Shown here: positions 18,505 to 60,819 of the stretch, piece after piece
Layout of the letters: every line of letters begins with the position of its first letter
How positions within the stretch are numbered: the first letter of the stretch is position 1
Source of the DNA: Alphaproteobacteria bacterium
GTDB taxonomy: Bacteria; Pseudomonadota; Alphaproteobacteria; UBA7879; UBA5542
NCBI GenBank assembly: GCA_046317875.1
Contig: JBKCVN010000026.1
Coordinates: 12,617-76,616 of the forward strand
Direction: 5' to 3'
Length of the DNA: 64,000 bases
The notes under the pieces: model-generated
Databases searched by the model: none
What the model saw: only the letters and a program-made list of their open reading frames with translations
What the model was told of the DNA's origin: nothing
Translations under genes and position numbers: made by a program

Positions 18505-18651
18505 TTTTATATATAAGAATATATCATTTTCTGCAATTTTTCTGTATTGAAAGATCCTGTAAGCTTCTTTTTAAATAGCAATATATAAAAAATGACAAAA
18601 CAAAAAAAATCTGTTAATTCAATCATGTGACTAAATATAAGGAGATTTGTG

Positions 18652-27867: not shown

Positions 27868-29112
27868 ATGTTTAAAGTTATGGCAACGGGCAGAAATCTG
27901 ATTCTTTTTTTATGGGTCTGCATCAGTTTTTTTTCGGTTTCAAATTCCAAAAATACTTCAGAATTTGTGAATAATGCTTATCACGCGGAAGGGCTGTCTG
28001 TGGAAGTCAGGCAAAATCTAGTCCAAAAAGGATATGACTTATTGCGTCGCCTTCAGGAAGGTGAGGCATTACCCGAACAAACAGCGATTTTTTCAGAGAA
28101 AGTTCTTCTGGCTGTCCGAAAAAAATCACCTTCCAAAAAAAGCCAAAATGTGTCTGATTTTGAATTGGTTCGACGGGCAAAGCTAGAGAATATCATTGCC
28201 ATAGTATGGGCATTGGCGGATTATGGAAACAGCATAGATTCTGTGTTTGCCAGCGGTGCCTTTAGTGTGGTGGAGGCGGACGAAAGGTTATCAAAACTCT
28301 TTCAAGAGTATGTAATGTACACCTCGCGGCTGAAAGACTTGAAAAAGCTTTCGAATGGTGTTTTCGTCTCGATTAACCCCTGGGCCAATAAATTTGTATA
28401 CAATAGACATCCCCGCCTTCGTGCATCTAGCCATTATAAAAAAGGATTGACCACCTATCAGTTTGGTATTGATGCCCGCTTTGCCAAGAATGGGCCTTCT
28501 TTGCCGGTGTTTCCCTTTAAAACCCGGCATCTTTTAGTGGGACGTGTTAAAACCTTTACAGGATTGCCCAAAACTTTTGTGAAATATGAATCCTATGGAA
28601 GTGCGGATATCAATTCTGCCATAAATCATCTGAATGAATTTATGCAGGTGGTTAAATTTAAAACGGCGCCCTTGGAAAAACGCAGTGAGAAGAAGATAAG
28701 GCCCGAGTTGTTAAGGGCTTTTGCCCCCTTAAAACAGGCCCTGATGGCCCTTCCGGATAAGGGAACATCATTTTTGTATCCATCCTTAAGCAATATGCCA
28801 TCCATCGATGGTCGATTAGCAGCTAAGGCCTTTGATGCCGTTTTCAAAGATAGAAAATATAAGGCTGCAGGGAAAAGCTATGATCTTGCCACCTTATCCT
28901 TAATGGCGGTTTTAAGTTATCGTTTTTCACAAGATGAAATTATTAAAGGGCATGCTGCCGGATTTTTGAATGCCGTGGAGGGTATGTATCATGATGGAAG
29001 GGGAACCTCAGCTGTAGGCCTAACCATTCAGCAAGTGCTGAGAACCGATTCCTTGTTGTTTTATCGTACCGGCAATGAAGTGGTTTTGAATTTAAGAAAC
29101 GTTACATATTAA
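27868..29112 (+). CDS. Hypothetical secreted protein (414 aa)
   Basis: Signal peptide MFKVMATGRNLILFLWVCISFFSVSNS; no recognisable motif. Confidence 0.4.
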   Translation: MFKVMATGRNLILFLWVCISFFSVSNSKNTSEFVNNAYHAEGLSVEVRQNLVQKGYDLLRRLQEGEALPEQTAIFSEKVLLAVRKKSPSKKSQNVSDFELVRRAKLENIIAIVWALADYGNSIDSVFASGAFSVVEADERLSKLFQEYVMYTSRLKDLKKLSNGVFVSINPWANKFVYNRHPRLRASSHYKKGLTTYQFGIDARFAKNGPSLPVFPFKTRHLLVGRVKTFTGLPKTFVKYESYGSADINSAINHLNEFMQVVKFKTAPLEKRSEKKIRPELLRAFAPLKQALMALPDKGTSFLYPSLSNMPSIDGRLAAKAFDAVFKDRKYKAAGKSYDLATLSLMAVLSYRFSQDEIIKGHAAGFLNAVEGMYHDGRGTSAVGLTIQQVLRTDSLLFYRTGNEVVLNLRNVTY

Positions 29113-29177: not shown

Positions 29178-29912
29178 ATGAATTTAATACGTTTCTTATG
29201 GGTTGGGTTGTTTTTGCAATGCGGGATTGTTTTATCCAATCCTTTTGAGTCTGGCGAATGGGACCCCTATCGATTAAAAAACCATGCCCATGTTTTGTCT
29301 TTTTCAACCGATCGCTTGATACTTCGGCCTGTTACATCAAAAAACTTTCAGCATTTGTTTGAAGAAGGGAAAAAGCTGTTCTCGCAAGACCAAGTCTTGG
29401 CTTATTGGGGTGGGTCGCGTACCGATACGGACGAAAATACAACAAAGTGGGAAGGTTTTTTAACACGGTGCTTGCATCGGCAAGAAGCAGGATTGCTCAG
29501 TTGGAAAGCCGTTTATCTTAAAGAAACCAAAACATTTTTGGGGTTTGTGGGTGGGAATAGATATGTAGATGCCCGGGATACACACACATCTTATAATGGA
29601 GCCATTGAAATAGCTTATGCCTTTCATCCCGAAGGTTGGGGAAAGGGATATGCCACCGAAGCGCTGAGAGGATTCTTATCGTTTGATGTGGGCCGTTTAG
29701 AAAACTATAGTTATGTGTTTGCCACGGTTCACCCTGAGAATACGCCTTCGATTAAAGTGTTAAAAGACAAAGCAGGTTTGCACGCCTGGACCCTGGATCA
29801 GGATATCCCCGCCTTTTTAAAACGTGAAAATCGTCAGTTTTATAAGATTGATAAAGACGAGCTTCTTTCAAAGAAGCTGCCAAGAGTTAAAGCTGTTTCT
29901 TTTAGAGTTTAA
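29178..29912 (+). CDS. GNAT-family N-acetyltransferase with an N-terminal signal-peptide-like extension
   Basis: RLILRPVT...LFEE RimJ/RimL-like start and an IAYAFHPEGWGKGYATEA acetyl-CoA-binding motif, preceded by the hydrophobic MNLIRFLWVGLFLQCGIVLS. Confidence 0.6.
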   Translation: MNLIRFLWVGLFLQCGIVLSNPFESGEWDPYRLKNHAHVLSFSTDRLILRPVTSKNFQHLFEEGKKLFSQDQVLAYWGGSRTDTDENTTKWEGFLTRCLHRQEAGLLSWKAVYLKETKTFLGFVGGNRYVDARDTHTSYNGAIEIAYAFHPEGWGKGYATEALRGFLSFDVGRLENYSYVFATVHPENTPSIKVLKDKAGLHAWTLDQDIPAFLKRENRQFYKIDKDELLSKKLPRVKAVSFRV

Positions 29913-39285: not shown

Positions 39286-40572
39286 GTGACTAAAGCATTT
39301 TTGATACATCCCTATTTGGGAAATGAAAAGATGTCGGCCACACGTCAGCCGCATGACAAGCTGCGTGAACTTCAAGGATTAACAGCTGCCATTAATTTGG
39401 ATGTGGCGGGTGAAGCCACCATTAAACTTCAAAAGATTAACCCTTCTACGTGCCTTGGAAAAGGGACAGTAGAAGGGTTAAAAGATTCTTTAGATCATCT
39501 TCATGTTGATTTGGTCATTATTAATCGACCGCTTAGCCCTATACAACAACGAAACCTAGAGAAAGAATGGAACCGCAAGGTGATTGATCGCACCGGTCTT
39601 ATTCTGGAAATATTTGGCGCCCGGGCCCGCACACGGGAAGGCAGCCTGCAAGTGGAGCTGGCCTCTTTAACCTATCAACGCAGTCGACTGGTGCGATCAT
39701 GGACCCACTTAGAGCGTCAACGGGGCGGGTATGGTTTTTTGGGAGGGCCCGGAGAATCGCAAATTGAATTGGATCGACGGTTGTTAGATCAACGCATTTT
39801 GCGGATTAAACAAGATCTGTCCCAAGTTAAAAGAACCCGTGGATTACAACGAAAAGCCCGGGATAAAAATGAACTGCCCCATATTGCATTGGTGGGGTAC
39901 ACCAATGCGGGTAAATCCACCTTGTTTAATTTGTTAACAGGGGAAAATGTATTTGCAGAAGATTTATTATTTGCCACACTAGACCCCACGTTGCGAGCCT
40001 TTAATGGGCCCCATGGAGAGAAATGGATCTTATCTGATACGGTGGGTTTTATTTCCGATTTGCCCACCGAATTGGTGGCATCTTTCCGGGCCACCCTGGA
40101 AGAAGTGTGTGAAGCGGATCTGATTTTGCATGTGCACGATGTATCGAATCCAGAATATAAAGAACAAGCCAAAGATGTATTGAAGATTTTAAATTCTTTG
40201 TTGGCTGACCAAACACCCCCCATTTTGAATGTGTATAATAAAATTGATTTATTATCCTGGGAGGATGGCCATTATTTCCAAACATTAGCCGAGGATCGAA
40301 GCATTTGTATTTCGGCCCAGAAGGGGCAAAACAAGCAAGCGTTGTTGCAAAAAATTCATCACCTTTTATCGGCCAAGCATCATCTTTTAGAAGTGGTTTT
40401 CAAGGCAGAAAATAGCCGTTTATTGGCCTGGTTTTATGAACATACCCAGGTTATTGAGCGAAAAGATGAAGAAAATAATATTTTTTTGCACGTAAAACTT
40501 GACGAAGCCACCGAAAATCGGTTTAACAAGATATGGCGCGTTGAGTGCCAGCACACTTTGCGGGTGTGGTGA
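39286..40572 (+). CDS. hflX: GTPase HflX
   Basis: HflX N-domain plus G-domain (GYTNAGKST, DTVGF, NKID). The ORF 3' end overlaps the tRNA-Leu 5' end by 13 nt. Confidence 0.85.
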   Translation: MTKAFLIHPYLGNEKMSATRQPHDKLRELQGLTAAINLDVAGEATIKLQKINPSTCLGKGTVEGLKDSLDHLHVDLVIINRPLSPIQQRNLEKEWNRKVIDRTGLILEIFGARARTREGSLQVELASLTYQRSRLVRSWTHLERQRGGYGFLGGPGESQIELDRRLLDQRILRIKQDLSQVKRTRGLQRKARDKNELPHIALVGYTNAGKSTLFNLLTGENVFAEDLLFATLDPTLRAFNGPHGEKWILSDTVGFISDLPTELVASFRATLEEVCEADLILHVHDVSNPEYKEQAKDVLKILNSLLADQTPPILNVYNKIDLLSWEDGHYFQTLAEDRSICISAQKGQNKQALLQKIHHLLSAKHHLLEVVFKAENSRLLAWFYEHTQVIERKDEENNIFLHVKLDEATENRFNKIWRVECQHTLRVW

Positions 40573-40644
40573 AATTGGTAGACACACTAGATTTAGGTTC
40601 TAGCGGCGAAAGCTGTGGGGGTTCAAGTCCCTCCACCCGCACCA
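40560..40644 (+). tRNA. tRNA-Leu (anticodon UAG) with a long variable arm
   Basis: Acceptor stem gcgggtg/cacccgc, anticodon stem ctaga/tctag with loop ttTAGgt, T-arm gggggttcaagtccctc, and a 3' CCA encoded. Confidence 0.85.
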
Positions 40645-46435: not shown

Positions 46436-47887
46436 ATGACACACGGGACCAAATTAAGCAGGCTATTTGTGATAAGTACTCTTTTGCTGGCCGGAACGGC
46501 CATGGCTTCTGCCGTTGCGGAGGATATGGATGGTATGACTAAACTAACCATCAAGGAGCGAATTGCACATGCGCGTAGTTTGAATGAACTTTATACCTTG
46601 GCAGCAAAAGAACAAGAAACCCGTCTAGACACTTGGAAGAAACTAAAGGATGGCCAAGATCATGATGCTTTGGATCGTGCTATCACCTCGTTAGCGGATT
46701 TGAAAAAATGGATTACCTTGAGTTGTATGGAGTTAACGGGTCTTAAGCCTGGAGAGAAAACAGAGCGTGCGCGGGTTCGTCAGCATTTCTTTGATGAAAC
46801 AAGCGCAGAATACAAATCTTTTGCTGAAAAAATAAAAGGTCTTTCAAGCTCTAAAACTGAAGCCGGTTCTTTATCCGTAAAGGCAGGGGAACTATATGGT
46901 CAGTTAGTGGCTCAAGCTGGGCAAAGGGCTGCATTTTATAAGGACGCTTTTGCCATGATCACAAGCGATACAGAGATGTTTTCAAAAGAAGGATTTGGAG
47001 CTGCTTTAAACTCTTGGACTGGGGGATATGCAGAATCATTAGAGGCTGCTTTAGGAAAGTATTTCTATGCAAAAAATCCTGCTTTAACTTTGTTAATGGT
47101 GCCTAAGGAAGAGCTAGAATCAGCACATAATATTGTTTCCCTGATGGAAAAATTCCATGAACCTTTGGGCATTTCTAAGGATTCTAATCCCATTTATATG
47201 GCGTCATTTGGGGATGAATTTGTGCAAAAGAGAAATGCATTAGAAGGAAGTCTTTCTTTGTCTGAGATGCATTCTTATATTGAAAATAAAGAGTTTTGGG
47301 AAGGAACAACCCCTGTCGATCAAACTTTAAATACTGTACCAACAGCAGCATCGGCAGACAAGGAAGAACCCACGTCTTCTGAGGGTCAAGAGCCCCCTTT
47401 AAGTGCAGAAGCTTCGTCTGCAGTATCCACACCCGAGGTAGAGTCTAGCCAGTCTAGGGTTGAAGGCCCAGTTGTTCCAAAATTTTTACCTGCGATTGGG
47501 ACGTTGGCTCAAGAAACTGTTACTTCTTCAGCTATTCCCATGGGTGAGGCTCCTGCATCAGTGAGTGGGGCCCCTGCGGAAATGTCAGCCGTAGAAAAAT
47601 CAAGGGATGTGCCCTCGATTTCCGTTTCTTCAGTGTCTTCTAATAGCACGCCGTCATCTGAAACTTTGGAAGATGAGCCAGCAGCGGACCCCGTTTCGGA
47701 TAAACAAGAGCCGCAGGCAAATGTTCAGGTATCTCTGCCTGGGGCAACTGCTTCTTCTGTATCCCAACAGAGTTCTTCGGCAGCCCAGGTTGTACAATCA
47801 GCGCTTTATCAACTTCCGCAGAAAGATGAAGGGATGCAGAATCCACAAGGGCATGGTAAAAAAAAAAATAAGAACAGACATAAATAA
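46436..47887 (+). CDS. Secreted protein with a Ser/Pro/Thr/Glu-rich low-complexity C-terminal half and a basic tail
   Basis: Signal peptide LFVISTLLLAGTAMASA. The C-terminal ~200 aa are S/P/E/A/V-rich; ends in GHGKKKNKNRHK. Confidence 0.45.
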   Translation: MTHGTKLSRLFVISTLLLAGTAMASAVAEDMDGMTKLTIKERIAHARSLNELYTLAAKEQETRLDTWKKLKDGQDHDALDRAITSLADLKKWITLSCMELTGLKPGEKTERARVRQHFFDETSAEYKSFAEKIKGLSSSKTEAGSLSVKAGELYGQLVAQAGQRAAFYKDAFAMITSDTEMFSKEGFGAALNSWTGGYAESLEAALGKYFYAKNPALTLLMVPKEELESAHNIVSLMEKFHEPLGISKDSNPIYMASFGDEFVQKRNALEGSLSLSEMHSYIENKEFWEGTTPVDQTLNTVPTAASADKEEPTSSEGQEPPLSAEASSAVSTPEVESSQSRVEGPVVPKFLPAIGTLAQETVTSSAIPMGEAPASVSGAPAEMSAVEKSRDVPSISVSSVSSNSTPSSETLEDEPAADPVSDKQEPQANVQVSLPGATASSVSQQSSSAAQVVQSALYQLPQKDEGMQNPQGHGKKKNKNRHK

Positions 47888-48181: not shown

Positions 48182-50239
48182 TTAGAGCTTGCCCAAATCA
48201 CAAATACGCGCACAGGCCGTTTCAATCTGTTTTAACAGACTGAGACGGTTGTGACGCCGTGTGGGATCGGGATCCTGCACCATTACATTCGCAAAAAACA
48301 CCTCGAGAGGGGCTTTGAGCTGGGAGAGGGCATGAATAGCCTTTCCATATTGGGGAGTATGAGTATCAAGAAATATTTTGAGCGCTTGCTCTGTTTCCTG
48401 AAGGGCATCAAATAATTTTTGCTCTTCTGAAGTGAAAACAGAGGAATCAAAGCGCACATCTTGGAAGCCAGCTGTTTGCTTTAGAATATTGGCTGCGCGC
48501 TTGTATACAGTAATAAAGTCAGGGCCTTCGGGTGATTCAAGGAAAGACTTTAGGGCCGACAGTTTTTGGTTAAGGTCGGTGATGGACCCATCCCATTGGG
48601 GCCCCATGACGGCATTCAGAAGAGATGCCGAATAGAGGGGTTTTAAATAGACGCTGAGACGATCTTCTAAAAATTCTTTCACAGCTGACTTTGCTTTTTC
48701 TTTAGTGGCTGTGGGGAAAGCGTAAGGACTGAGGGCTGCAGAAATTAAATCTGGCAACCGTACGTCTAGTTCATTTTCATGAATCAGGCGAATGATTCCC
48801 AAGGCTGTACGCCGCAAGGCATATGGATCTTTTGAGGCTGTGGGTTCCAACCCTGCTGCAAAGAATCCCACAAGCGTATCCAGTTTATCCACCAACGCCA
48901 CATGGATGCTGAGGGGGTCTTTGGGGCATGTGTCCTGGGGTCCGGCTGGTGCATAGTGAGTGCGGATGGCCTCTGATACCTGGGAAGAGAGCCCCTGGGC
49001 CCGTGCATAGTGGCCCCCCATGATGCCTTGCAGTTCAGGAAACTCGCCCACCATGCCCGTGGATAGATCGGCTTTTAACAAGCTGATAGCCTGTTGCGCT
49101 TGTTGGGGATTAAGGGTGGGAAAGTGGGGTAAAAGCGCAGAAGACGTCTGGTGTAGACGATTAATTTTATCGGCAATGGTACCCAGTTTTTCTTGGAAAA
49201 TACGGTGGGCTAGGGGTTTGTTCCATTCTTCTAGGGGGCGCCTCATATCTTGTTCCCAAAAGAAATGGGCATCGCTAAGGCGCGCGCGCAAAACTCGCTC
49301 GTTTCCATCAATAATCGTTTGACCTTGATCGGGGGTTTCCATATTAGAAACAATCAAGAAATGGGGGGCCAGTTTTCCATTCTTATCGCGGGTGGCGAAG
49401 TACCGTTGGTGGGTACGCATAGAAGTGATGAGAACCTCTTCGGGCAGTTGGGTAAAGCGTTCTTCAATGGTGCCCATCAACACCACGGGCCATTCCACCA
49501 GATTGGCTGTTTCTTGCAACAATCCACTGTCTTCTTCCAGGGTTAAGCCTTTCGAGGCCAGCAAAACATCGATTTGTTCCTGAATGGATTTTTGACGTTC
49601 GAGGGGTTCCACCTGAACATAGTTTTGAGCCAGTTGTATTTTATAGTCCGCATAGTTTTTAACCATGATTTGATGCGGCGACATAAACCGGTGTCCATAG
49701 GTATGGGCACCGGCCTGGATGTTTAAGCTTTTTAAGTATACGGGCACAATCTGGCCGTCGAAAAGGGCCAGGATCCCATGAAGGGGGCGGGCCCAAACAA
49801 AGGTGTCTGTTTTCCAGCGCATGCTTTTGGGCCATTCAAAATTTTCTAAGGTTTCTTTAATGAGGGTCGCCAAAATTTGGGCCATAGGCTTGCCTTGCTC
49901 GTGCACAGTGGCAAAGAGAAAGGGGCCCTTGTCACCCACGTGCTTTTCTTCGCAGTCGGAACGATTTTTATGGATAGATTTTAAAAAACCATCAATGGCT
50001 GCTGGGGGGGCATCAACACGGGGACCACGTCGTTCTTCGGACCGATCGGCCTGTACCAACGGAAGACCAGTAATGATCATGCCCATACGCCGGGGGGTGC
50101 CGAAGGTTTTAATGGATTCGAAGGATAGGTTTTCTTTTTTCAGCCTTAAATCAAAGGCGTTTGCCAATTGGGCTTGTCCCAGGGTCTGAAAGGCCGCTGG
50201 GATTTCTTCAGAAAAAATTTCTAATAAAAATTCGGTCAT
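48182..50239 (-). CDS. glyS: Glycyl-tRNA synthetase beta subunit
   Basis: GlyS family. The likely start is [14 protein letters not shown], giving a 4-nt ATGA overlap with the glyQ stop. The track ORF extends 50 codons further upstream. Confidence 0.85.
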
Positions 50240-51123
50240 TCCGGGGTCTTGGCTCCTTGACTGATGGCCCATGATTGGCAACAACCTTTGGCAATTTCGC
50301 GTACGCGGGCAATGTACGAGGGGCGTTCGGTTACACTGATCATCCCGCGGGCATCCAACAGGTTGAAAAGATGGCTGGCTTTTAAACATTGGTCATAGGC
50401 CGGCAGGGGAAGATTTTTGTCTAATAAATGGCGGGATTCTTGTTCCGCATCTTGAAACTGGCGGAATAAAATATCCGTATTCGCCTGTTCGAAGGCATAA
50501 TGGGAAAATTGACGCTCGTTTTCAAAAAAAACATTCTTATAGGTAATTTCGTCTGGGCCCGTAAGACCATTCCAGTTCAGATCAAAGATGCTTTCTTTTT
50601 TCTGAATCACCAAAGCCAAACGTTCCAGCCCATAGGTGAGTTCGACCGAAATGGGTGCGCAGGGCAGACCCCCCATTTGTTGAAAATAGGTGAACTGGCT
50701 GACCTCGGCGCCATTACACCACACTTCCCAGCCCAATCCAGCCGCGCCCAGGGTGGGACTTTCCCAATCATCTTCCACAAAGCGAATATCATTGATTAGG
50801 GTATCCACCCCAATCGCCTTTAGGCTTTCAAGATATAATTCCTGGGCATTTTCGGGGGTGGGTTTAATGATGACCTGAAATTGATAATAGGATCCTAAGC
50901 GGTTAGGGTTTTCACCATATCGTCCATCGGTGGGTCGACGCGAGGGTTGCACATAGGCGGCCCGCCAGGGATGGGGATCAATGGATCGCAAGGCGGTGGC
51001 AGGATGAAAAGTACCGGCCCCCATTTCCACATCATAGGGCTGAAGGATGGCACATCCTTGTTTGGCCCAAAAGTTTTGTAGGGCTAAAATAATACTTTGA
51101 AAGCTGCGCTGAGAATCTAACAT
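50236..51123 (-). CDS. glyQ: Glycyl-tRNA synthetase alpha subunit
   Basis: Highly conserved GlyQ ([24 protein letters not shown]). Confidence 0.9.
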
Positions 51124-51211
51124 CTATTATCCAAAAATATGGCCCCAGTCTAATGGAAGTTTGTAGGAAACTCAACCATGCTGACCAATATCTTTGCTAT
51201 TTTAAAAAGGT

Positions 51212-51718
51212 TTGGTACAATTAAACTATAATTATTCATTACAGGGAATATTCATGAAAAAATTTTACGTAATTTTGACTATGTTTTTGGGTCTGGTTCT
51301 TTCTGGCATTACATCCACAGGGAGTACGAATATCCCTGATAATACACAAAGAAACTCGAGCCCTTACACAGTGGAAAGTCTTATAAAAGAGCGTGAAGAG
51401 TTCGTAAAAATTCTAAGACAAATACCAAATCCACAGGATAAATACTTTTTATTTGATCTTTGGATCGCTTATTTAGGTGAGAGAGCAGCAGTTGTGGGGC
51501 ATGTAGTAGAAATGAGAGAATTAACCCAGGCTCAGGCTAAAACCTATTTAGACCGCTTAGCACTAGAACATCATGTGGCTGCAAGAGCCTTGAAGAAATT
51601 AGGATATCACGAGTTTGCACAACATTTTACCGAGATGGGAAATATTAGAAAGCGTCAATATAATGCCAGATATTATGATGAGAATCAGGAAAATCCCAGC
51701 AAAAGAAGAAAATACTAA
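51212..51718 (+). CDS. Hypothetical small secreted protein (paralog of 52670-53077)
   Basis: Signal peptide. Shares LWI...LGY... segments with the 52670-53077 ORF. AT-rich. Confidence 0.35.
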   Translation: MVQLNYNYSLQGIFMKKFYVILTMFLGLVLSGITSTGSTNIPDNTQRNSSPYTVESLIKEREEFVKILRQIPNPQDKYFLFDLWIAYLGERAAVVGHVVEMRELTQAQAKTYLDRLALEHHVAARALKKLGYHEFAQHFTEMGNIRKRQYNARYYDENQENPSKRRKY

Positions 51719-51752
51719 TCAGTATTAAAATCAGAGTAAGAGAGAAAAAATC

Positions 51753-52598
51753 ATGAAAAAATTTGGAATCGTTTCAATTGTTTTAGTTTTAGTTGTGACC
51801 TACAGCTTCTGTGCCAGCGATATGGGGGGTGGGGCAAGCGCGGAACATTCCAAAACAGGGGAAGTCCATTTCCAGCGTCCAGGTGTTCATCCCTTGACAG
51901 AGGTCATGGAAAAAACAAAGCACCGCAATGCCCATCAGTTTACAACTTTAGTGATTGGTGCAAGTCCATATGAGGCAGAGAGTGATCCTGAGCGTTCTGA
52001 ATTATATCAGAATTCAGATATATTCTTATTAAGCAGCCATGCGCCCGTTAATCCCACTTTGGATGAGTCGAGATTCTTACCGTTGGATTTTAACTTGGAC
52101 ATATTTAATATTTCCCTTGCGAATTCTAAAGCCAGTTCGAGGTTTGATGAAATACTATTTGACTGGTCAACGTATAAGTTTGTTAGAAGTGATAGCGCTA
52201 TGGCCCGTGTTCTTCATAACATGTTGAAAAAGGGGGGGTCTGTCTTTATTCCGGAACCCCAAGGTATGAATGCAGGAGGACTGGTGCCCACTTTGGAAAG
52301 GTTAATAGACTATCCCCAATATAAAGAAGTGTACGATAAGTATAAGCATCACTTACACCTAGGCCATTCGATGAGTGAATACAAAGAAGCCTATTTACAT
52401 GATATAAAGAAAACAAGGGTTGCCCTTTTAGAAAAGGCTCTTCATGCAGCTGGATTTAAAACAGTTCGTGTTGTGCGATCGACCGAAATTCAGGATTCTA
52501 AGGCTTTTGATTTAATTAAACAAAATGTTGTGGCGAAGAATAAATTACGCGGCGATAATCATGAAGAATTTTCCGTACTAGTCGCCACTAAGGAATAA
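51753..52598 (+). CDS. Hypothetical secreted protein (281 aa)
   Basis: Signal peptide MKKFGIVSIVLVLVVTYSFCAS; no confident domain. Confidence 0.35.
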   Translation: MKKFGIVSIVLVLVVTYSFCASDMGGGASAEHSKTGEVHFQRPGVHPLTEVMEKTKHRNAHQFTTLVIGASPYEAESDPERSELYQNSDIFLLSSHAPVNPTLDESRFLPLDFNLDIFNISLANSKASSRFDEILFDWSTYKFVRSDSAMARVLHNMLKKGGSVFIPEPQGMNAGGLVPTLERLIDYPQYKEVYDKYKHHLHLGHSMSEYKEAYLHDIKKTRVALLEKALHAAGFKTVRVVRSTEIQDSKAFDLIKQNVVAKNKLRGDNHEEFSVLVATKE

Positions 52599-52669
52599 CC
52601 TTTTCGCTTGTTTTTTGACGGGCTTTCTGGGAACAATAAAATATATTTTAGGTTTTCAGGAGGGGGATC

Positions 52670-53077
52670 ATGGCTAAAATCATTCAAGGTATCAGTGCAA
52701 TACTTGTTTGCCTATTTAGTGCTTCGGTTTTTGCAAAACCCATCGCACGAGAGAAGCCGTTGCCGGCCATAGGAATAACCCAAGTTCAGAAGGTGGTCTC
52801 GCACCTGCCGGATCGAGCGGATAAATTGGTGGTGTATCGGTTATGGATTGATGCCCTGCAGTTAAAAGTGGCGGATGCGGATCAGGATCGTTTGGCAGGA
52901 AAATTGTTGAACGATCAGTACGATACTTATCTGGACAATATTGCGCAACTTATTCAATTTATTGCCACAGCGGTTCATGATTTGGGATATGTCTCCCTTT
53001 CCCAAGAATGGAAAAAGCTGGGGGGCCAGTACGCCAAGATTACGGCTCATCCCGAAGCCTTGGCGGCTAAGATTTAA
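52670..53077 (+). CDS. Hypothetical small secreted protein (paralog of 51212-51718)
   Basis: Signal peptide. LWIDALQL / DLGYVSL segments parallel LWIAYLGE / KLGYHEF in the 51212-51718 ORF. Confidence 0.35.
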   Translation: MAKIIQGISAILVCLFSASVFAKPIAREKPLPAIGITQVQKVVSHLPDRADKLVVYRLWIDALQLKVADADQDRLAGKLLNDQYDTYLDNIAQLIQFIATAVHDLGYVSLSQEWKKLGGQYAKITAHPEALAAKI

Positions 53078-53096
53078 AAAGCCATCAGGGCTTACC

Positions 53097-54743
53097 TTAT
53101 GGGTGCGTCATCCACCCTGCTTCTGTTAGGGCGTCCTTGATCGCAATTCTCCAGAAGGCCCTTTGCCCTGTATTATCTTCGGATGCATGGGGTGTGTGGA
53201 AGAATCGGAGAGAGTAGTCTTGTTGACTGTTTTTATGAGGTACACGCATGCAGAGGGTCCCATTGCCTTTCTTGATGGGTGTTTTATCTGAAGGATCTTC
53301 AGTCAACAAATTTTGTCCCACTTTTATGTTCATCTGATTTAAAAGATCGATTGCTTTGCGAAATTTCAAAGTTTTAGAACTAGTTAGTTCTTCGATTATA
53401 TGTGAATAGTCTGGGGTTTGAGGGGCCGATGAAGGTTCAATCTTTTTAACGGAAGGTTGTTTAACTCCTCGGTCTAAATGAATAGCTAGGGAATGGGGTT
53501 GTTCCTCTTCCTCTCCCAATGCAATATTTTGATTTTTGCCTTTTCCTTTTGGTTCAGCTTTCGCCCTAGGTGAATCCATTTGTGTCGACTCTGCTTTTTG
53601 TTCAAGGACGGGGGGCAGGGATTGAACTTCATCAGGTATAAGTGTAGCCCCTTCATCAGGCGTAACACTCTTTTGTTCCAGGGGTAGCCTTCCTTTCCCA
53701 AGAGATAAGCCAGGTTGTTGGATTTTTGACATTTCTAAGTGGCCTAATCCCATTTTTTCTTCCAAAAACTTGTCTTCCGCTTCTGATTTCGGTTCAGAAG
53801 AGGAGGAAGGCATTACCAGGGGGGTCGCCAAGGATTCTTTGCCTTCTTTTTTTAGGGAAGCTTCTGCTTGGACTAAAGTATTTTCTATTTTAAACAGAGT
53901 AAGTAACCTGTGAGTCAGGTTGTCTTTAGTTTCTACTTTGGACTCATATAACTGGGCAAGTAAATCATCGGCTAGCTTCAAACTCACTTCAATTTTTTTT
54001 AAAATAGGATTATGGGGATTTTCTTTTGCTATTTGGTCCCTTATATTTAGTCCCCATGCGAAGAACGCCTCTGGATAAGAAAGAAGGCTGGATTCATCAA
54101 CCATTTCCAAAGCAGTTATCCGAATCGGGGACTTTGAAGAGAGAATCCCGTCTTTTTCTTTAAATGTCTTAATGTTCTTTTCTATGGGCTCAAGTTGGCT
54201 CTTAAGAGATTTATTAAGAAAAGGCTTTAGAATAGAACAAATCGTAAAAAAAGTCTCATGTTCGCTTTCTACCCCTCCTAGATTTCTCTTTTGCAGCCGA
54301 AGATGTGAAAAATATTTTTCTGCAGACAGCGCCTCAAAAACATGAAACCACAAAAGGCCACAGTGATGATGGGAAAGAGGGATAAGAGCGATGGTTATCT
54401 CTTGCATGGTCTGCAGTAAGGTAAGATCATGACTAATGGCACGTTTTAATTCTATTAAATCAAACAAACTCCATTTTTCAAGATGATTAGGCATCAGAAT
54501 AGCAGCAGCAGCTTTTTGTCGAATGCGCTTCTCTATGGCCTCATCAGAGATAAAAGCATCAAATTGCTGATTAAACCTGATCCGACCATCTAGAATTTTG
54601 CTCACGGCCTTAAGGGCGCCTTTGGGGTTGGAGATTTCTTCGCGCGAAAAGAGGGGACGTTCCTGGGCAGCTGTCCATGCAATGCTATTGAAAAATAAAG
54701 AAAACATGACTGTGGCAAAGTAACAGTATTTTAGAAAATTCAA
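53097..54743 (-). CDS. Hypothetical secreted protein (548 aa) with a central low-complexity K/E/P/S-rich region
   Basis: Signal peptide MNFLKYCYFATVMFSLFFNSIAWTAA. Co-oriented and adjacent to the tyrosine recombinase gene. Confidence 0.4.
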   Translation of the reverse strand: MNFLKYCYFATVMFSLFFNSIAWTAAQERPLFSREEISNPKGALKAVSKILDGRIRFNQQFDAFISDEAIEKRIRQKAAAAILMPNHLEKWSLFDLIELKRAISHDLTLLQTMQEITIALIPLSHHHCGLLWFHVFEALSAEKYFSHLRLQKRNLGGVESEHETFFTICSILKPFLNKSLKSQLEPIEKNIKTFKEKDGILSSKSPIRITALEMVDESSLLSYPEAFFAWGLNIRDQIAKENPHNPILKKIEVSLKLADDLLAQLYESKVETKDNLTHRLLTLFKIENTLVQAEASLKKEGKESLATPLVMPSSSSEPKSEAEDKFLEEKMGLGHLEMSKIQQPGLSLGKGRLPLEQKSVTPDEGATLIPDEVQSLPPVLEQKAESTQMDSPRAKAEPKGKGKNQNIALGEEEEQPHSLAIHLDRGVKQPSVKKIEPSSAPQTPDYSHIIEELTSSKTLKFRKAIDLLNQMNIKVGQNLLTEDPSDKTPIKKGNGTLCMRVPHKNSQQDYSLRFFHTPHASEDNTGQRAFWRIAIKDALTEAGWMTHP

Positions 54744-54849
54744 TTTGGTGTCCTTTTAAATAAATAACTTCCGAATATATAGAGACTAGATGTGAGAATT
54801 CAAGAATAATTCAATAAAAACATGATTTTAAAGTAAAAAATATAAAGAA

Positions 54850-55755
54850 TTAAGCCCTAGGATGGCTGGATTTATAGATCTGTTGCAACCTTTTGCGGTT
54901 GATCTTGGTGTATCGTTGTGTGGTGGAGAGTGAGGCGTGTCCCAGCAATTCTTGGATGGTGCGGAGGTCTGCATTTTCCTCGAGCAAATGGGTGGCAAAG
55001 CTGTGGCGTAAAGCATGGGGGGTGACCGTTTCAGGCAGATTGAGGGACCGACGTAATTTTCGCATGGAGTTTTCTGCCACCGAAACGTTCAGTCTTTTGC
55101 CCTGGACGCCGTAAAAAAGAGGGTCGTGGGACGATTGTAAAAAGGGGCAGGAGGTGAGGTAAGATTGGATTTTTTCCCATACGATGGGCAGTAGGGGCAC
55201 AAGGCGTTCTTTTTGCCCCTTACCCTTAACGCGTAACATGCCATTGGGTTCGAGGATATCGCCTTGGTTCATTTTTAGGGCCTCGTGAATACGCAGACCA
55301 CAGCCATACAACAGTGTAAAAAAGGCTTCGTCACGTTTGCCCACCCAATCCTGGGGCGCTAAATCACCTGCATGGGCCAGCAGGGTGTGGGCATCCTCTT
55401 GCGACAGGGCCCGGGGAAGGGCTTGCTCTTTTTTTGGGGCCCGAAGGTTGCGGGCGATGGGGTTATGGGCCAGGCCTTGTTGATCGAGAAAGAGGAAGAA
55501 ACTGCGGATGACCGACACCGCCCGTGTGATGGTGGATTTGTTTTGTTCCTGATGGGACAACAGGTGGGTCATCCAGGATCGAAAATCCCGTGCCTTGAGC
55601 AAAGTAAGGTCAGAAAGTGTTACTTCTTGGCCCACATGGGTTTGAAGAAAAGACAAAAATTCATTCAGCACACGTGTGTATACCTGTACCGTGAGGGGCG
55701 AGAGATTTTTTTCCTTTTGAAGCCAGTTGATCCAGTTTTGGATGGGAAGCGACAT
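54850..55755 (-). CDS. xerC: Tyrosine site-specific recombinase (XerC/XerD family)
   Basis: Catalytic R...HxxR...Y: ALRHSFATHLL, LGHASLSTTQRYT. The N-terminal SAM-like domain (TVQVYTRVLNEF) is present. Confidence 0.8.
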   Translation of the reverse strand: MSLPIQNWINWLQKEKNLSPLTVQVYTRVLNEFLSFLQTHVGQEVTLSDLTLLKARDFRSWMTHLLSHQEQNKSTITRAVSVIRSFFLFLDQQGLAHNPIARNLRAPKKEQALPRALSQEDAHTLLAHAGDLAPQDWVGKRDEAFFTLLYGCGLRIHEALKMNQGDILEPNGMLRVKGKGQKERLVPLLPIVWEKIQSYLTSCPFLQSSHDPLFYGVQGKRLNVSVAENSMRKLRRSLNLPETVTPHALRHSFATHLLEENADLRTIQELLGHASLSTTQRYTKINRKRLQQIYKSSHPRA

Positions 55756-56006
55756 GCTACTCTCTTTTTTTTATTCATGGGCGGTATCTTATCATTCGAG
55801 CACTATATATAGTATGCCTAAAAAAGAAGTTTGTGAAAAGCATACCATAGAACAATATAATGGATTTAAACCTATACCTAAGATATTCAGGTATGTAAGT
55901 CATAAATATTTAATCTCTATGGGGGGATCAGATAAATGTAAGAAATTTTTTTCTTCTTTAAAAACATGTTACAATAATAAAAAATGCTAAAAAAACAGGG
56001 AATCAC

Positions 56007-56726
56007 ATGTTAAAAAATTCATATTATTTTATGATCTTATTGTTTTTGCCATTCATGAATGCGATAGCATCAGATGCACCATGTCCCACCACCCAGCCTT
56101 GCAAAAGCGCAAAAGATTGCCAGTGGAAACCAGGGCCTCAATGTGGAAATGATTTTTTGCATCAGCGATTTAAAAACCTGAAAAAAGACCAGAACACGCA
56201 TAATCATGGACATCGGTGTAGAACCTTAGAAGCTTACCAAAAAATGGTCAAGGGGGGGCGCCTAAAGAATGCTTTGACCTCAAACTGTTTTAAAGAATTT
56301 TGCAGATACTGGTGTTTAGCCGGACAAAGTGCCAAAAAGACCCAAGATGCCGAGTACGAATTATGTAAATCTTGTGTTAGTGCGACTCGATTAAGGCCTG
56401 AAGAACGCGAGTTAGCAGCTTCATGGTATGATGTCACTCTGCCAGCTAAAAGCCTTAACAAAGAAAGCCCCTCTAAGCTTATGTTTAGAGACGCTTATCG
56501 AAAAGTAAAAGATTCTTTGGGATCGTCTTACATAAAAAATAAAATGAAATGGTGTAAGAAATCATGTAACAAACGTCAAATTGGACTTTATCCTAACGGT
56601 GACGATGATCGTGACACGAAATCTAAGATGGATCAGTATTATAATAAATGTAGAATTATTTGTGGATTAAAGTCCGAGAATCTCGCGCACGGTCTGAATC
56701 TTAAACCCGCAGCTGATAATTTTTAA
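56007..56726 (+). CDS. Cysteine- and lysine-rich secreted protein
   Basis: Signal peptide MILLFLPFMNAIASDA; ~20 Cys in 239 aa; AT-rich. Confidence 0.4.
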   Translation: MLKNSYYFMILLFLPFMNAIASDAPCPTTQPCKSAKDCQWKPGPQCGNDFLHQRFKNLKKDQNTHNHGHRCRTLEAYQKMVKGGRLKNALTSNCFKEFCRYWCLAGQSAKKTQDAEYELCKSCVSATRLRPEERELAASWYDVTLPAKSLNKESPSKLMFRDAYRKVKDSLGSSYIKNKMKWCKKSCNKRQIGLYPNGDDDRDTKSKMDQYYNKCRIICGLKSENLAHGLNLKPAADNF

Positions 56727-56843
56727 AAAACTGAAGAAAAAAGAATTCTGGGGGAACGATAGTCTATTCCGTCATTCGGGGATTTCAATTGAGATAGGGG
56801 GGGCCAAGTTTGTTGATTCAACAACAATAACCCGCCTTGTAAA

Positions 56844-57497
56844 TTAAATCTTCTGGCCTGAATCTTTCCAATCTTTCAGGAACATCTCGAGTCCCTTATC
56901 GGTGAGAGGGTGATGAAGCAATTGTTTGATCACTTTGGAGGGCGCCGTCATCACGTGGGCACCCATCATGGCCGCATCCAGTATGTGACGTGGATGACGG
57001 ACCGAGGCCACCAGAACTTCGGTGGTCAGTTCAGGATAATTCCCATAAATCTGGCAAATTTCTTGAATCAAAGCCAGGCCGTCTTGCCCGATATCATCCA
57101 AACGGCCCACAAAGGGGGAAATAAATGTGGCCCCCGCTTTGGCTGCCATCAGGGCTTGGCCTGAAGAAAAACATAGCGTTACGTTGGTCATGGTGCCCTC
57201 TTGATGAAGTACGTGGCAAGCCTTGAGCCCTTCACCGGTAAGGGGCAATTTCACACATACGTTCGGGGCAATTTTAGCCAAAGCCCGCCCTTCAGCCAAC
57301 ATGCCTAGGCTATCTGTCGAGACCACTTCTGCACTGACGGGGCCGGGCACAATTTCGCAAATTTCTTGGATCACATCCTTAAAATTACGACCTGACTTGG
57401 CAACAATGGTGGGGTTGGTGGTCACACCATCCACAACGCCCATGGCGGCGAGTTCTTTAATTTCTGCAATATCAACACCGTCTACAAAAAACTTCAT
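56844..57497 (-). CDS. tal: Short-form transaldolase / fructose-6-phosphate aldolase
   Basis: [31 protein letters not shown] and a TGEGLKA Schiff-base Lys region. Confidence 0.85.
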
Positions 57498-57558
57498 GGG
57501 CTTTCTACTTTCTGCTACTAATTAAGAGTCTTGATCACCATATCGAAAAAAAGAAAAA

Positions 57559-59589
57559 ATGTCAGCGCCTTGTGAAAAAAAAGTTGAAGTTTTATTGCCG
57601 GTTCCTTTTGACCAGACCTTTTCATATGGTGTGCCGAGCGAATTTAAGGTGGGAAAAGGGGATTATGTTCAGGTGTCCTTTGGAAGTCGCACTTTGGTGG
57701 GGGTGCTATGGAGTGAAGCTGTGCCTGGGGAAGAAGAAACCCCAGTTGTACCAGCGTTAGGGCCAGCAAAGAAAGCCTATACCCTGAAACCCTTATTAAA
57801 GAAATTTGATTTTCCGCCTTTGAGCCCCCAATCCATAAAATTTGTAGAGTGGGTGGCCCATTATTATATGGCGCCCCTGGGGATGGTTTTAAAGATGGTG
57901 TTGGCTGAGCCATCAGTTTTTAAAGATATAAAACGTCGCACCCCAAAAGAGATGCCGTTGAAACAATCTGGAGAGCCAGTGGTATTGTCGGCGTCTCAAG
58001 AATCTTGTGTTTCTTTTTTAAAAGAAAAGATGGAGGGGTTCCATACTGTGTTATTAGAGGGGGCCACGGGGTCGGGTAAAACTGAAGTGTACCTGGAACT
58101 GGTGAAAGAGATCTGTGCCAAAGGTCAACAAGCCGTTGTTTTATTACCCGAAATTGGGTTGGGTACCCAGTGGGTGGCGCGGTTTGAAAAGCGGTTTGGG
58201 GAAAAGCCTATATTGTGGCATTCAGACCTGACCCCGGCCCAACGCCGTGATAATTGGGAAAAGATAGCCCAAGGCGAGGCTCGTGTTGTGGTGGGGGCCC
58301 GATCGGCTTTGTTTTTGCCCTATCCAAACCTAGGGCTGGTGGTGGTAGATGAAGAACACGATGGGGGGTACAAACAAGAATCCGGTGTCTTTTACCATGC
58401 CCGTGATATGGCAGTGATTCGGGGGTCTTTGGCCTCGTGTTTGGTGGTGTTGGCCTCGGCCACGCCCTCGTTGGAAACGGTGGTGAATGTGGAGCAGGGG
58501 CGATACGACAAATGCCATCTGGACCAACGATATGGGGAAGCTGGGTTTGCACACGTTACCCTGATAGATCGCCGTGCCAAGGAAGGAAATCTGGTGCCCG
58601 GCAGCCGTTGGATTTCAAAACCCCTCTATGTGGCCATACAAGAAACCTTGGCCCAGAAGGATCAGGTTTTATTGTTTTTGAACCGTCGTGGCTATGCACC
58701 CATGCTGTTGTGTAGTGCCTGTGGCGAGCGAACCACCTGTAAACAATGTGATGCGTGGTTGGTGCATCATAAAACCCAAAATAAGTTACAATGCCACCAT
58801 TGTGGCTATACGGAACGACCCCGAACGGTGTGTAAGGGGTGTGGAGAAGAAAATACACTCATTCCCTGTGGGCCGGGGGTGGAACGGGTGATGGAAGAAG
58901 TAACGGCCTTATTCCCCGACGCCCGCACCTTGATGATGACCAGCGATACCATGACTACCCTGAAACAATCGGAAGAGATGATTGGCAAGATCGAAAAAAA
59001 ACAGGTGGATATTATTGTGGGGACCCAAGTTATGGCCAAGGGGCACCACTTTCCTGATTTAACTTTGGTGGGGGTTATTGATGGGGATTTGGGGCTGGGG
59101 GGCAATGATTTACGCCTGGTAGAGCGCACTTATCAGTTGTTGCACCAAGTCTCGGGCCGATCGGGCCGGGCGCAGAAAAAAGGGCGGGTGATGATTCAGT
59201 CGCACATGGGGGACCATCCCGTGATGCAGGCTTTAATGGTGCAGGACCCCTCGGGTTTTTTGGCGCTGGAAAAAGAAAGCCGGCAAGTGTTTGGCTTTCC
59301 CCCCTATGGACGGTTGGCCGCGGTGATTTTATCGGGACGTCAAAGCCATCAGGTGGAGGCTGCGGCCCGCCAAATGGCAGCCTGTATTCCCGTGATAAAA
59401 GAGATTGAAGTGTTGGGACCGGTGCCGGCCGCCATGAGCCGGTTGAAGGGCCAATATCGGTGGCGGTTTTTGGTAAAAAGTGAGCGTGGGATTAAGATAC
59501 AATCCTTCCTAAAGAAATGGGTGGAAACCGCCCAGATTCCCACCCACATTCGATTACAGATTGATATGGATCCTTATAACTTTTATTAG
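57559..59589 (+). CDS. priA: Primosomal protein N' (PriA helicase)
   Basis: Walker A GATGSGKTEVY, DEEH box, and a Cys4 zinc-binding region (CSACG...CKQCD...CHHCG...CKGCG). Confidence 0.9.
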   Translation: MSAPCEKKVEVLLPVPFDQTFSYGVPSEFKVGKGDYVQVSFGSRTLVGVLWSEAVPGEEETPVVPALGPAKKAYTLKPLLKKFDFPPLSPQSIKFVEWVAHYYMAPLGMVLKMVLAEPSVFKDIKRRTPKEMPLKQSGEPVVLSASQESCVSFLKEKMEGFHTVLLEGATGSGKTEVYLELVKEICAKGQQAVVLLPEIGLGTQWVARFEKRFGEKPILWHSDLTPAQRRDNWEKIAQGEARVVVGARSALFLPYPNLGLVVVDEEHDGGYKQESGVFYHARDMAVIRGSLASCLVVLASATPSLETVVNVEQGRYDKCHLDQRYGEAGFAHVTLIDRRAKEGNLVPGSRWISKPLYVAIQETLAQKDQVLLFLNRRGYAPMLLCSACGERTTCKQCDAWLVHHKTQNKLQCHHCGYTERPRTVCKGCGEENTLIPCGPGVERVMEEVTALFPDARTLMMTSDTMTTLKQSEEMIGKIEKKQVDIIVGTQVMAKGHHFPDLTLVGVIDGDLGLGGNDLRLVERTYQLLHQVSGRSGRAQKKGRVMIQSHMGDHPVMQALMVQDPSGFLALEKESRQVFGFPPYGRLAAVILSGRQSHQVEAAARQMAACIPVIKEIEVLGPVPAAMSRLKGQYRWRFLVKSERGIKIQSFLKKWVETAQIPTHIRLQIDMDPYNFY

Positions 59590-60767
59590 GGTTTGGCCTC
59601 GGCTGCGGTTGCGGCGGCAGGTTCGGGACGGGCCATGACCTTGTTAATTTTCTCCACCAGTTCGGGGGTGAGGGTTTGGAATACATTCAAGGTAAAATGT
59701 TCTTCTTCCCCAGAAAGAACATTCTTGCCACGGATATTACTAGAATAAGACATCAGTCCAAATAGAGAAAATTTATCATCTTCTTTTGTAAATACGGGGC
59801 AACCACTGGTACCACCCACACAGGGACCGAAAAGTTTTTTCTCTTCATCGGATAGTGTATGAAAAGCTAGGCTTGATTCTTTTTTAAAAGACTCATTGTC
59901 GCTAGGGTTTAATTTTTCAAAACATCCAAATGCTTTGGGCTTTACGGGTACTGTTCTTAGTGTTTGTACGAAAACCTGGGGCCGAAAATGGGCACACACG
60001 CTGTCTCGAGTCTGGGTTACCAGGGAAGGAAGCCTATGATCGGGGTGCTCAAATATTTTTGGCAGAGGGGCTCTGTCCATAAATGTTGTTCCATTCATGG
60101 ATTTTTGTCCATCAGCAAAACACCACAAACCTTGGGAGGCGATTCCATAAACATTAACGGTGGGGGGATCGATGGGGGTGGCAGAAAGGGTAATGGGTGC
60201 AATATTTGGAAGGGGGTTTTCTACCTTTAACAAAAGAATATCATGAAGTGTGTTAATAGTATGTTTCCCATTTCTTATGATGAAATCATGGGTGCTTAAA
60301 TTTTGCCGAAAGCTTTTTAAAAGCCCATTCTCTTTTCCATCACTGAATAGTGGGGGGATATGCTTTTCACTTATTGTGACTTTTGAGAATTGATAACGAT
60401 TCGTGCAGTGGTATAATGTTTTATCTTTTTTGGCTTTGGTAATATCCATGTTGCTATTAGTGAGATCAATAGGAATGGTGCTAGGGGAAGGGCTGACCCA
60501 AACGGATGTGTCAGCATCTAATATATGGGTATGATGACAGGAGGTGAGAATATAGTGGGCATTTAAGGCAACGCCTGACCCCATGGAAAGGTCTTGCTCT
60601 CCTTTTTTGTAAGAGACGACCGTCATTATGTTCCCGGCGGGGAAGGTTGGGTGGCTTGCGATGAAAGCTTTTGAGGCTTCATTTGCCTCGAAGGGGTCCT
60701 CAAAAGCCCCAAATCCAGATATAAAAGAACATAGGGTCAGTAGAAAAACTTTTTTTAAGTGCATCAT
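59586..60767 (-). CDS. Secreted trypsin-like (S1/chymotrypsin-fold) serine protease, paralog 1
   Basis: Signal peptide MMHLKKVFLLTLCSFISGFGA; His box LTSCHH; Asp in HDILLLKV; catalytic Ser box GGTSGCPVF. Its stop overlaps the priA stop. Confidence 0.7.
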   Translation of the reverse strand: MMHLKKVFLLTLCSFISGFGAFEDPFEANEASKAFIASHPTFPAGNIMTVVSYKKGEQDLSMGSGVALNAHYILTSCHHTHILDADTSVWVSPSPSTIPIDLTNSNMDITKAKKDKTLYHCTNRYQFSKVTISEKHIPPLFSDGKENGLLKSFRQNLSTHDFIIRNGKHTINTLHDILLLKVENPLPNIAPITLSATPIDPPTVNVYGIASQGLWCFADGQKSMNGTTFMDRAPLPKIFEHPDHRLPSLVTQTRDSVCAHFRPQVFVQTLRTVPVKPKAFGCFEKLNPSDNESFKKESSLAFHTLSDEEKKLFGPCVGGTSGCPVFTKEDDKFSLFGLMSYSSNIRGKNVLSGEEEHFTLNVFQTLTPELVEKINKVMARPEPAAATAAEAKP

Positions 60768-60819
60768 GATTCTTTCGTAATGAAATAAATGCCTTATCTT
60801 ATAACAAGTTTTTTTACTT

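Follow-up and report, generated by a model that had tools for sequence, protein, structure and literature searches.

Genes for predicted exported proteins vary in content and in alleles around a housekeeping xerC gene of an uncultured alphaproteobacterium

A 64,000-nt stretch of DNA from an alphaproteobacterium (GenBank assembly GCA_046317875.1, contig JBKCVN010000026.1, positions 12,617 to 76,616 of the forward strand), in the following called the window, contains at 48182-59589 the genes glyS and glyQ (minus strand), three open reading frames (ORFs) for proteins of 168, 281 and 135 amino acids (aa; plus strand), the genes for a 548-aa protein and a 301-aa tyrosine recombinase (minus strand), the gene for a 239-aa protein (plus strand), tal/fsa (minus strand) and priA (plus strand). 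A preliminary description had regarded the five proteins without recognisable domains, together with the recombinase, as a horizontally acquired island of secreted effectors. The comparison with related lineages led to a different explanation, which is considered to be quite probable. It is that a conserved backbone, which includes a housekeeping xerC gene, gains and loses genes at its junctions and has alleles of some of its genes swapped by recombination. The linkage of the recombinase to the genes for exported proteins is coincidental. The window is a metagenome-assembled contig, the proteins of the locus are NCBI entries MFN7663032-040, and all relatives that were used for comparison are also metagenome-derived.

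Results

The Recombinase Is a Housekeeping XerC Within a Conserved Backbone

The recombinase (54850-55755, minus strand) is the chromosomal housekeeping XerC in its usual conserved position, and it has no part in the variation of the locus. It contains the SAM-like core-binding domain PF02899 (E=2.5e-13) and the catalytic domain PF00589 (E=2.9e-37), and the catalytic set of XerC is present (R155, K179/K182, H247, R250, H273 and Y282) and invariant across seven homologs. The XerC model TIGR02224 yielded the best score (299.6 bits, with a cutoff of 335 bits), while the XerD model reached 248 bits; both values are below the respective cutoff. The homologs of the clade and a homolog from the Geminicoccaceae likewise stayed under the 335-bit equivalog cutoff of TIGR02224, with 302-305 bits. 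PGAP also named the protein XerC (MFN7663037.1). The GC content of the gene (0.512) and that of its third codon positions (GC3, 0.579) are like those of glyQ, tal and priA and unlike those of its neighbours, and a second recombinase was not found within the 64-kb window. The preliminary description had noticed that a XerC/XerD-family recombinase has the same orientation as the 548-aa gene, and indeed the gene lies on the same strand directly upstream and its product has the Phage_int_SAM_1 and Phage_integrase domains. The premise of its fallback explanation, namely that this could be the chromosomal Xer, was borne out by the best score of the XerC model, the core-like GC content and the constant position in relatives.

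Related contigs were retrieved by exact-protein look-ups, and the synteny of the backbone priA / tal-xerC / ... / small exported protein / glyQ-glyS turned out to be common to six lineages. The identity of XerC to that of the window was 95% in L003, 85% in L014, 83% in L019, 77% in L012 and 76% in the GWB1_45_5 groundwater group (GWB1 group). Even in a distant metagenome-assembled genome (MAG) of the Geminicoccaceae, xerC (49% identical) adjoins priA, in divergent orientation. In the relatives tal lies directly upstream of xerC, and the gap of only 1 bp in the GWB1 group suggests that the two genes form an operon there.

The gene content of the locus changes markedly among the six lineages. 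The slot between xerC and glyQ encodes proteins of 501, 135 and 270 aa in L003, a 548-like protein and a 132-aa protein in L019, and four unrelated ORFs followed by a 125-aa protein in L012. In the GWB1 group a beta-carbonic anhydrase (Pro_CA) precedes a 141-aa protein, and in L014 the ortholog of the 135-aa protein is encoded by the sole gene between xerC and glyQ. Both L014 and the GWB1 group have thus kept xerC without the 548-, 281-, 168- and 239-aa genes. This presence/absence pattern revealed that each of the five predicted exported proteins has a history of its own and that their genes do not vary as one unit.

Some of the alternative occupants of the slot were characterized further. 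The carbonic anhydrase gene was found in the contigs L004-L011 of the GWB1_45_5 group, which stem from Rifle groundwater (e.g., L005 8468-9277). In L012 the region 6591-7504 contains three short co-directional ORFs of 121, 61 and 120 aa, the first of which has a P-loop (GGPGSMKST), and which look like the remains of a broken gene for a kinase or a zeta-toxin-like protein. A gene for a 265-aa protein that lacks a signal peptide is also located in the slot of L012.

A classical genomic island that is mobilised by its own tyrosine integrase would explain why a tyrosine recombinase is located amid low-GC genes without assigned function, and PHROG integrase profiles did match the recombinase, as they do with any tyrosine recombinase. 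However, the protein obtained its best score with the XerC model, its gene has the GC content of the core genome, and the position of the gene is the same in every relative, even in L014, from which the island genes are missing. Searches for attachment-site repeats and inverted repeats at the boundaries yielded only matches of chance length, and the sole meaningful repeat is a 14-nt sequence around an indel of 499 bp (see below). A tRNA gene is not present near the locus, the only one of the window being located at 40560-40644, and the comparison with PHROG and PADLOC gave no sign of a phage or defence origin apart from the generic integrase match of xerC. The atypical composition of an integrase-borne island was found for four of the five unknown genes, and also for orphan genes elsewhere in the window. 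As the genes of the locus vary independently and no flanking direct repeats or phage genes accompany them, an island of this kind is extremely improbable, and the proposal of a recombinase-linked, horizontally acquired unit was abandoned.

That the recombinase is truly the chromosomal Xer and that the locus is a hot spot in six lineages might instead point to an IMEX-like element that exploits Xer, or to selfish DNA that has accreted beside xerC, as had also been suggested. IMEX elements integrate at dif and not beside the xerC gene. A dif-like site was not detected in the 64-kb window with the proteobacterial dif consensus and up to three mismatches. The cumulative GC skew rises steadily across the window without a switch, and therefore no replication terminus is near. 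Neither a transposase nor a toxin-antitoxin pair nor a phage or defence signature was found that would justify the label "selfish DNA", and similar clusters of orphan genes are present elsewhere in the window, away from xerC. Hardly any credence can thus be given to this possibility, and the conserved backbone with a housekeeping xerC remains the preferred explanation.

The Interiors of Two Genes Are Divergent Alleles

The closest relative of the window is L003, and the two loci were compared at the protein and at the DNA level. The core proteins share 99% (Tal), 98% (GlyQ), 95% (PriA), 95% (XerC) and 93% (GlyS) identical amino acids. The respective values for the predicted exported proteins are 95% for the 135-aa protein and 87% for a 483-aa secreted orphan, and only 52% and 49% for the 548-aa and the 281-aa protein. 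At the DNA level a backbone of 88-99% identity is interrupted by two blocks of about 40-65% identity, the edges of which are sharp (30-100 nt wide). One of these divergent-allele cassettes, which were defined by their DNA identity to L003, is located at 51841-52580 (plus strand) and comprises the body of the 281-aa gene; its identity is about 48-67%, and values of 90-100% are reached on both sides within 30 nt. The other is located at 53640-54580 (minus strand) in the middle of the 548-aa gene, with an identity of 38-67% between flanks of 80-100%. Conserved between the two genomes are the 3' ends and the signal-peptide ends of these genes, and also the DNA between the genes.

The silent sites gave the clearest picture. 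Where the window and L003 encode the same amino acid, their identity at 4-fold degenerate sites is 0.93 in the 135-aa gene and 0.90 in xerC. Within the 548-aa gene it is 0.82 in the C-terminal part, 0.68 in the N-terminal part and 0.37 in the middle, and in the body of the 281-aa gene it is 0.33, i.e., the silent sites of the cassettes are saturated. For comparison, the silent-site identity of the backbone is 0.78-0.93 between the window and L003 and about 0.5 between L003 and L019. The N-terminal and middle parts of the 548-aa protein have the same amino acid identity between the window and L003 (0.44) as between L003 and L019 (0.44). Because selection at the protein level cannot saturate silent sites locally, these gene interiors must trace back to a far older common ancestor than the DNA around them does. 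Judged from these sequence comparisons, the best explanation is that the interiors of the 548-aa and the 281-aa gene were replaced by divergent alleles via homologous recombination, which was anchored in the conserved ends. In line with this model, silent divergence is also slightly raised in the DNA that flanks the cassettes. Silent donor cassettes were not found within the 64-kb window.

As an alternative, the two proteins could have diverged where they are without any recombination, either because positive selection was fast or because constraint was relaxed. The exported proteins of the clade do evolve fast, as at the distance of L019 the 135-aa family has retained 47% and the C-terminal domain of the 548-aa protein 49% identity, compared with 83-92% for core proteins. 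But selection on the proteins cannot produce 4-fold-site identities of 0.33-0.37 inside the cassettes next to 0.82-0.93 in the adjacent DNA. Divergence in place with such sharp edges would require localised hypermutation, which is not evident, and blocks of 740-940 nt that contain indels are unlike the targets of diversity-generating retroelements. Divergence without recombination is therefore improbable.

It also had to be considered that the mosaic might be a chimeric assembly of co-occurring strains, given that the window and all relatives are derived from metagenomes. This has very little chance of being true, since a separate assembly of run SRR31514666 (L001) is 100% identical to the window over 5.9 kb (53494-59393), a region that spans the 239-aa gene, xerC and the larger part of the cassette of the 548-aa gene. 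In addition, the reading frames are intact across the boundaries, and L003 and L019 stem from other samples. Recombinational replacement of the gene interiors thus stays the favoured explanation of the mosaic.

Gene Gain and Loss at the Junctions

Two genes of the locus are absent from L003. The first encodes the 239-aa protein (56007-56726, plus strand) and is part of a strain-specific block between tal and xerC (55800-56843, about 1 kb, GC 0.366), which was delimited by alignment with L003. At the place of this block, L003 has an unrelated spacer of about 135 nt and the GWB1 group the 1-bp gap, and the block is 100% identical in L001, which is a separate assembly. The 239-aa protein is an ORFan, because it matched only itself among 5.8 billion clusters and had no tblastn match in the related loci. 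Given the base composition of the region, an open frame of this length would arise by chance with a probability of about 8e-9, and it is thus very unlikely that the frame is a chance product. The reported richness in cysteine and lysine was verified (14 Cys, 30 Lys). The cysteines include two CX3C pairs (183/187 and 215/219) and one CX2C pair (120/123), a pattern that is compatible with a disulfide-bonded exported protein. A Pfam match to "late nodulin" (E=7e-4, 20 bits compared with a cutoff of 30 bits) covered the signal peptide and the first cysteines and was regarded as probably spurious.

The second gene is the small one beside glyQ. The 168-aa ORF begins with TTG at 51212, but most likely translation starts at ATG 51254, and the gene (51254-51718, plus strand) thus encodes a predicted exported protein of 154 aa (NCBI MFN7663033.1, a singleton cluster). 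It has a GC content of 0.37 and was found in the genome of the window only. The 154-aa gene is located in a segment of 499 bp (about 51266-51764) that is absent from L003 and is flanked by a 14-nt direct repeat, AAATTTTTTCATGA, which corresponds to the start regions (MKKF...) of the 154-aa and the 281-aa gene. A repeat-mediated deletion in L003 and an insertion in the window would both fit this indel. Of the proposed horizontal acquisition, therefore, gain and loss at the level of single genes (two genes) and allele replacement (two interiors) have persisted, but not the acquisition as one recombinase-borne unit.

Predicted Exported Proteins and Their Families

The five unknown proteins had no above-threshold match in Pfam, NCBIfam, PHROG or PADLOC, in agreement with the preliminary description. 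Six ORFs had been described as starting with signal peptides; signal-peptide-like N-termini were found in the five unknown proteins and not in the recombinase. According to a sequence heuristic, the N-termini of the five proteins have a basic part, a hydrophobic part and a small-x-small segment, and their best 12-residue Kyte-Doolittle windows within the first 45 residues have values of 1.9-3.3, compared with at most 1.35 for the products of glyS, glyQ, xerC, tal and priA. The five proteins are thus probably exported, and their putative site of action would be the cell surface or the surroundings of the cell, with a host, a phage or a competitor as the target.

The 135-aa protein (52670-53077, plus strand) is the lineage-conserved member of a family of small helical proteins with the motif VY.LWID...LGY. 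A member is encoded beside glyQ in all six lineages, with identities of 95% in L003, about 50% in L014 and L019, 30-36% in L012 and 28% in the GWB1 group. The gene has a core-like GC content of 0.466. The paralogy of the 168-aa (154-aa) and the 135-aa protein was confirmed (29% identity over 79 aa, E=9e-9), the former being a divergent paralog of the 135-aa family. Metagenomes were scanned for additional alleles with the 135-aa family and with XerC, and no match was obtained.

The 548-aa protein (53097-54743, minus strand) has a predicted signal peptide, a predicted long helical N-terminal domain, an acidic and lysine-rich linker and, at its C-terminus, a rare conserved domain that comprises some 90 residues and has a predicted alpha/beta topology. 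The linker, which had been noted as a low-complexity core, comprises about 135 residues (306-442) that are predicted to be disordered. Homologs are encoded directly downstream of xerC in three lineages, i.e., the window, L003 (52% identity) and L019 (37%). When 1.84 billion representative proteins were searched exhaustively with HMMER, only two proteins, P0032 and P0033, were found in addition to the L003 homolog. Both have about 500 aa, signal peptides and the shared C-terminal domain (...NLC.R.P.K...RF...PH......AFWR.A.....E.GW). The genes of these two distant members (L017 8001-10556 and L015 409-1944) are located elsewhere, amid ordinary chromosomal genes, and one of these lies between ubiE and a gene with Fic/MerR domains, followed by dut and mutS.

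The AlphaFold model of the 548-aa protein was poor, with a predicted local distance difference test score (pLDDT) of 45. A C-terminal alpha-alpha-beta-beta-beta-alpha unit was predicted, and fold searches with the model were uninformative. It was considered that the C-terminal domain might be HicA/YcfA-like (dsRBD-type), but an hhalign comparison of a four-member alignment with Escherichia coli HicA, the sequence of which was verified as PDB 6HPB, gave a probability of only 0.2%. In addition, there was no Pfam match at E-values up to 10 and none in sequence searches of the PDB. The likeness to HicA is limited to the predicted alpha-beta-beta-beta-alpha order, and the assignment was rejected.

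The 281-aa protein (51753-52598, plus strand) was found in two of the six lineages, and its sole homolog is the 270-aa protein of L003 (49% identity). Its AlphaFold model was weak (pLDDT 53, predicted template modelling score 0.51). Possibly, the modelled fold represents a degenerate Rossmann or methyltransferase-like fold. It differs in several respects from the class I S-adenosylmethionine (SAM)-dependent methyltransferases. The model is of low confidence, no methyltransferase hidden Markov model (HMM) matched even at E-values up to 10, and no sequence match was obtained in the PDB. Instead of GxGxG, the sequence of the glycine-rich SAM loop is LVIGASPYE in the window and LVIGVSPYE in L003, and a predicted signal peptide is unusual for that fold. 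A profile search of the PDB with the alignment of the 281-aa protein yielded only de novo designed TIM barrels, through a repeated LKKGG motif, and was regarded as spurious.

Layout of the Locus and Further Genes of the Window

The core genes were named with NCBIfam and Pfam. The left anchor of the locus is glyQ (50236-51123, minus strand), which encodes the alpha subunit of glycine-tRNA ligase (NCBIfam NF006827, 470 bits, above the cutoff). Behind it follows glyS (48182-50239, minus strand). The mechanically called ORF of glyS (48182-50389, 735 aa) overlaps glyQ by 154 nt, and the real start codon, ATG 50239 (MTEF...), restores the usual glyQ-glyS overlap of 4 nt. On the other side the gene for the fsa/tal-type aldolase (56844-57497, minus strand; TIGR00875, 300 bits, above the cutoff) is followed by priA (57559-59589, plus strand), the right anchor, the orthologs of which contain PriA domains. 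All ORFs of the preliminary description were present at their positions.

The genes for the unknown proteins had been described as AT-rich. This is correct for four of them (GC 0.36-0.41) and not for the 135-aa gene, the value given above for it being slightly higher than the window mean of 0.44. The core genes glyQ, glyS, tal, priA and xerC have values of 0.49-0.51. Further low-GC ORFs with signal-peptide-like N-termini, for which either no domain or just repeats or weak domain matches were detected, are found in small groups, e.g., at 3566-5344, 16022-17371 (Sel1 repeats), 18649-19170, 27868-29112, 46436-47887 and 59586-60767. The composition of the cluster is thus not unique, because similar ORFs are scattered through the window.

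Several of these additional genes were inspected. The region 59586-63406, on the other side of priA, encodes three paralogs of 393, 347 and 289 aa (28-30% identity), of which at least the first has a signal-peptide-like N-terminus. The 393-aa paralog has a weak match to Trypsin_2 (E=0.006). In L003 only one copy, of 383 aa, is encoded beside priA; it belongs to the same 90% cluster as the 289-aa paralog, and the region looks like a second variable slot. Two low-GC paralogs with Sel1 repeats are encoded at 15133-15822 and 16022-17371, and the second of them contains ten repeats and has an N-terminus that is strongly hydrophobic. A GNAT acetyltransferase (Acetyltransf_3, E=3.5e-20) with a signal-peptide-like start is encoded at 29178-29912, and the adjoining gene (27868-29112) encodes a 414-aa orphan with a similar N-terminus. 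The 483-aa predicted exported orphan is encoded beside glyS (46436-47887) and has a long tail rich in serine, glutamate and proline; L003 differs at the extreme C-terminus. By analogy, the Sel1-repeat proteins, the GNAT protein with its signal-like start and the three trypsin-like paralogs are reminiscent of host-associated bacteria.

Discussion

The locus has probably reached its present state in the following way. Three junctions of the backbone priA / tal-xerC / small exported protein / glyQ-glyS have collected lineage-specific genes for proteins that are putatively exported by the Sec pathway, and the variation would arise by two routes. By the first route, genes would be gained and lost at the junctions, i.e., the 239-aa gene between tal and xerC and the 154-aa gene beside glyQ, and elsewhere a beta-carbonic anhydrase gene or unrelated genes, and at least one of these events appears to be bounded by a short direct repeat. 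By the second route, homologous recombination would swap the interiors of the 548-aa and the 281-aa gene for very divergent alleles. The recombination might be anchored in the conserved signal-peptide or 5' end on one side and in the conserved 3' end or the neighbouring genes on the other. An outward-facing role of the products would favour that divergent alleles are kept.

Several points weigh against this explanation. The 548-aa family was found in one close (L003) and one intermediate (L019) relative and the 281-aa protein in L003 alone, and with so few carriers the direction of the replacement and the donor lineages cannot be deduced. The view is limited to 64 kb, in which xerD and dif were not seen. 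The export of the five proteins was called solely from features of their N-termini, and none of the five has an established function. Lastly, strain mixing in metagenome assemblies could in principle generate some mosaicism; the boundaries fall inside intact reading frames.

It is tempting to speculate, albeit with a rather small chance of being right, that the 548-aa family and the 281-aa protein are exported effectors that target a host or a competitor, and that their ancient alleles are under balancing or frequency-dependent selection and are swapped between lineages of this uncultured groundwater clade. If this were true, the locus would mark an arms race. Two genomes with core proteins that are 93-99% identical carry interiors of genes for exported proteins that are as divergent as those of a lineage with a core identity of 83-92%, and the mosaic thus singles out the proteins of the clade that are most likely under outward selective pressure. 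Furthermore, three small orphan families were defined, namely those of the 135-aa protein, of the 548-aa protein with the conserved C-terminal domain, and of the 281-aa protein. These families and the sharp mosaic of alleles are new, while the kind of phenomenon is already known. A more general lesson is that a recombinase beside odd genes is no evidence for a mobile island when the recombinase is a conserved XerC.

The recombinase resembles the XerC of the XerC/XerD system of chromosome-dimer resolution in its two-domain architecture, the full R-K-H-R-H-Y set, the best match to TIGR02224, the core-like composition and its occurrence as a single conserved chromosomal gene, which adjoins priA even in a distant alphaproteobacterium. 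It differs in the score of about 300 bits, compared with the cutoff of 335 bits, and in that the XerD partner and dif were not seen in the 64 kb.

For the mosaic genes themselves, the wsp gene of Wolbachia and the porin genes of Neisseria offer a comparison. These are mosaic genes for surface or secreted proteins, with conserved ends and hypervariable centres. The 548-aa and the 281-aa gene share with them the conserved signal-peptide and C-terminal ends around a divergent centre that seems to recombine. They differ in that there is no relationship in sequence or fold, and in that the 64-kb window contains no silent donor copies.

The locus as a whole has a counterpart in the flexible genomic islands, of both the replacement and the additive type, that were described for aquatic prokaryotes of close relationship (Lopez-Perez et al., 2014; PMC4033161). 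Those islands are gene clusters for surface structures or glycosylation with a size of tens of kb, while the locus of this study is far smaller and has cassettes of 0.5-1 kb within genes, indels of single genes, and orphan genes. The likeness is apparent in that different genes, or very divergent versions, occupy the same place between core genes in all strains, that an exposed or exported location is predicted for the products, and that the boundaries are sharp and accompanied by a raised synonymous divergence beside them. For the islands described there, as for the locus in the window, homologous recombination between lineages would explain the exchange best.

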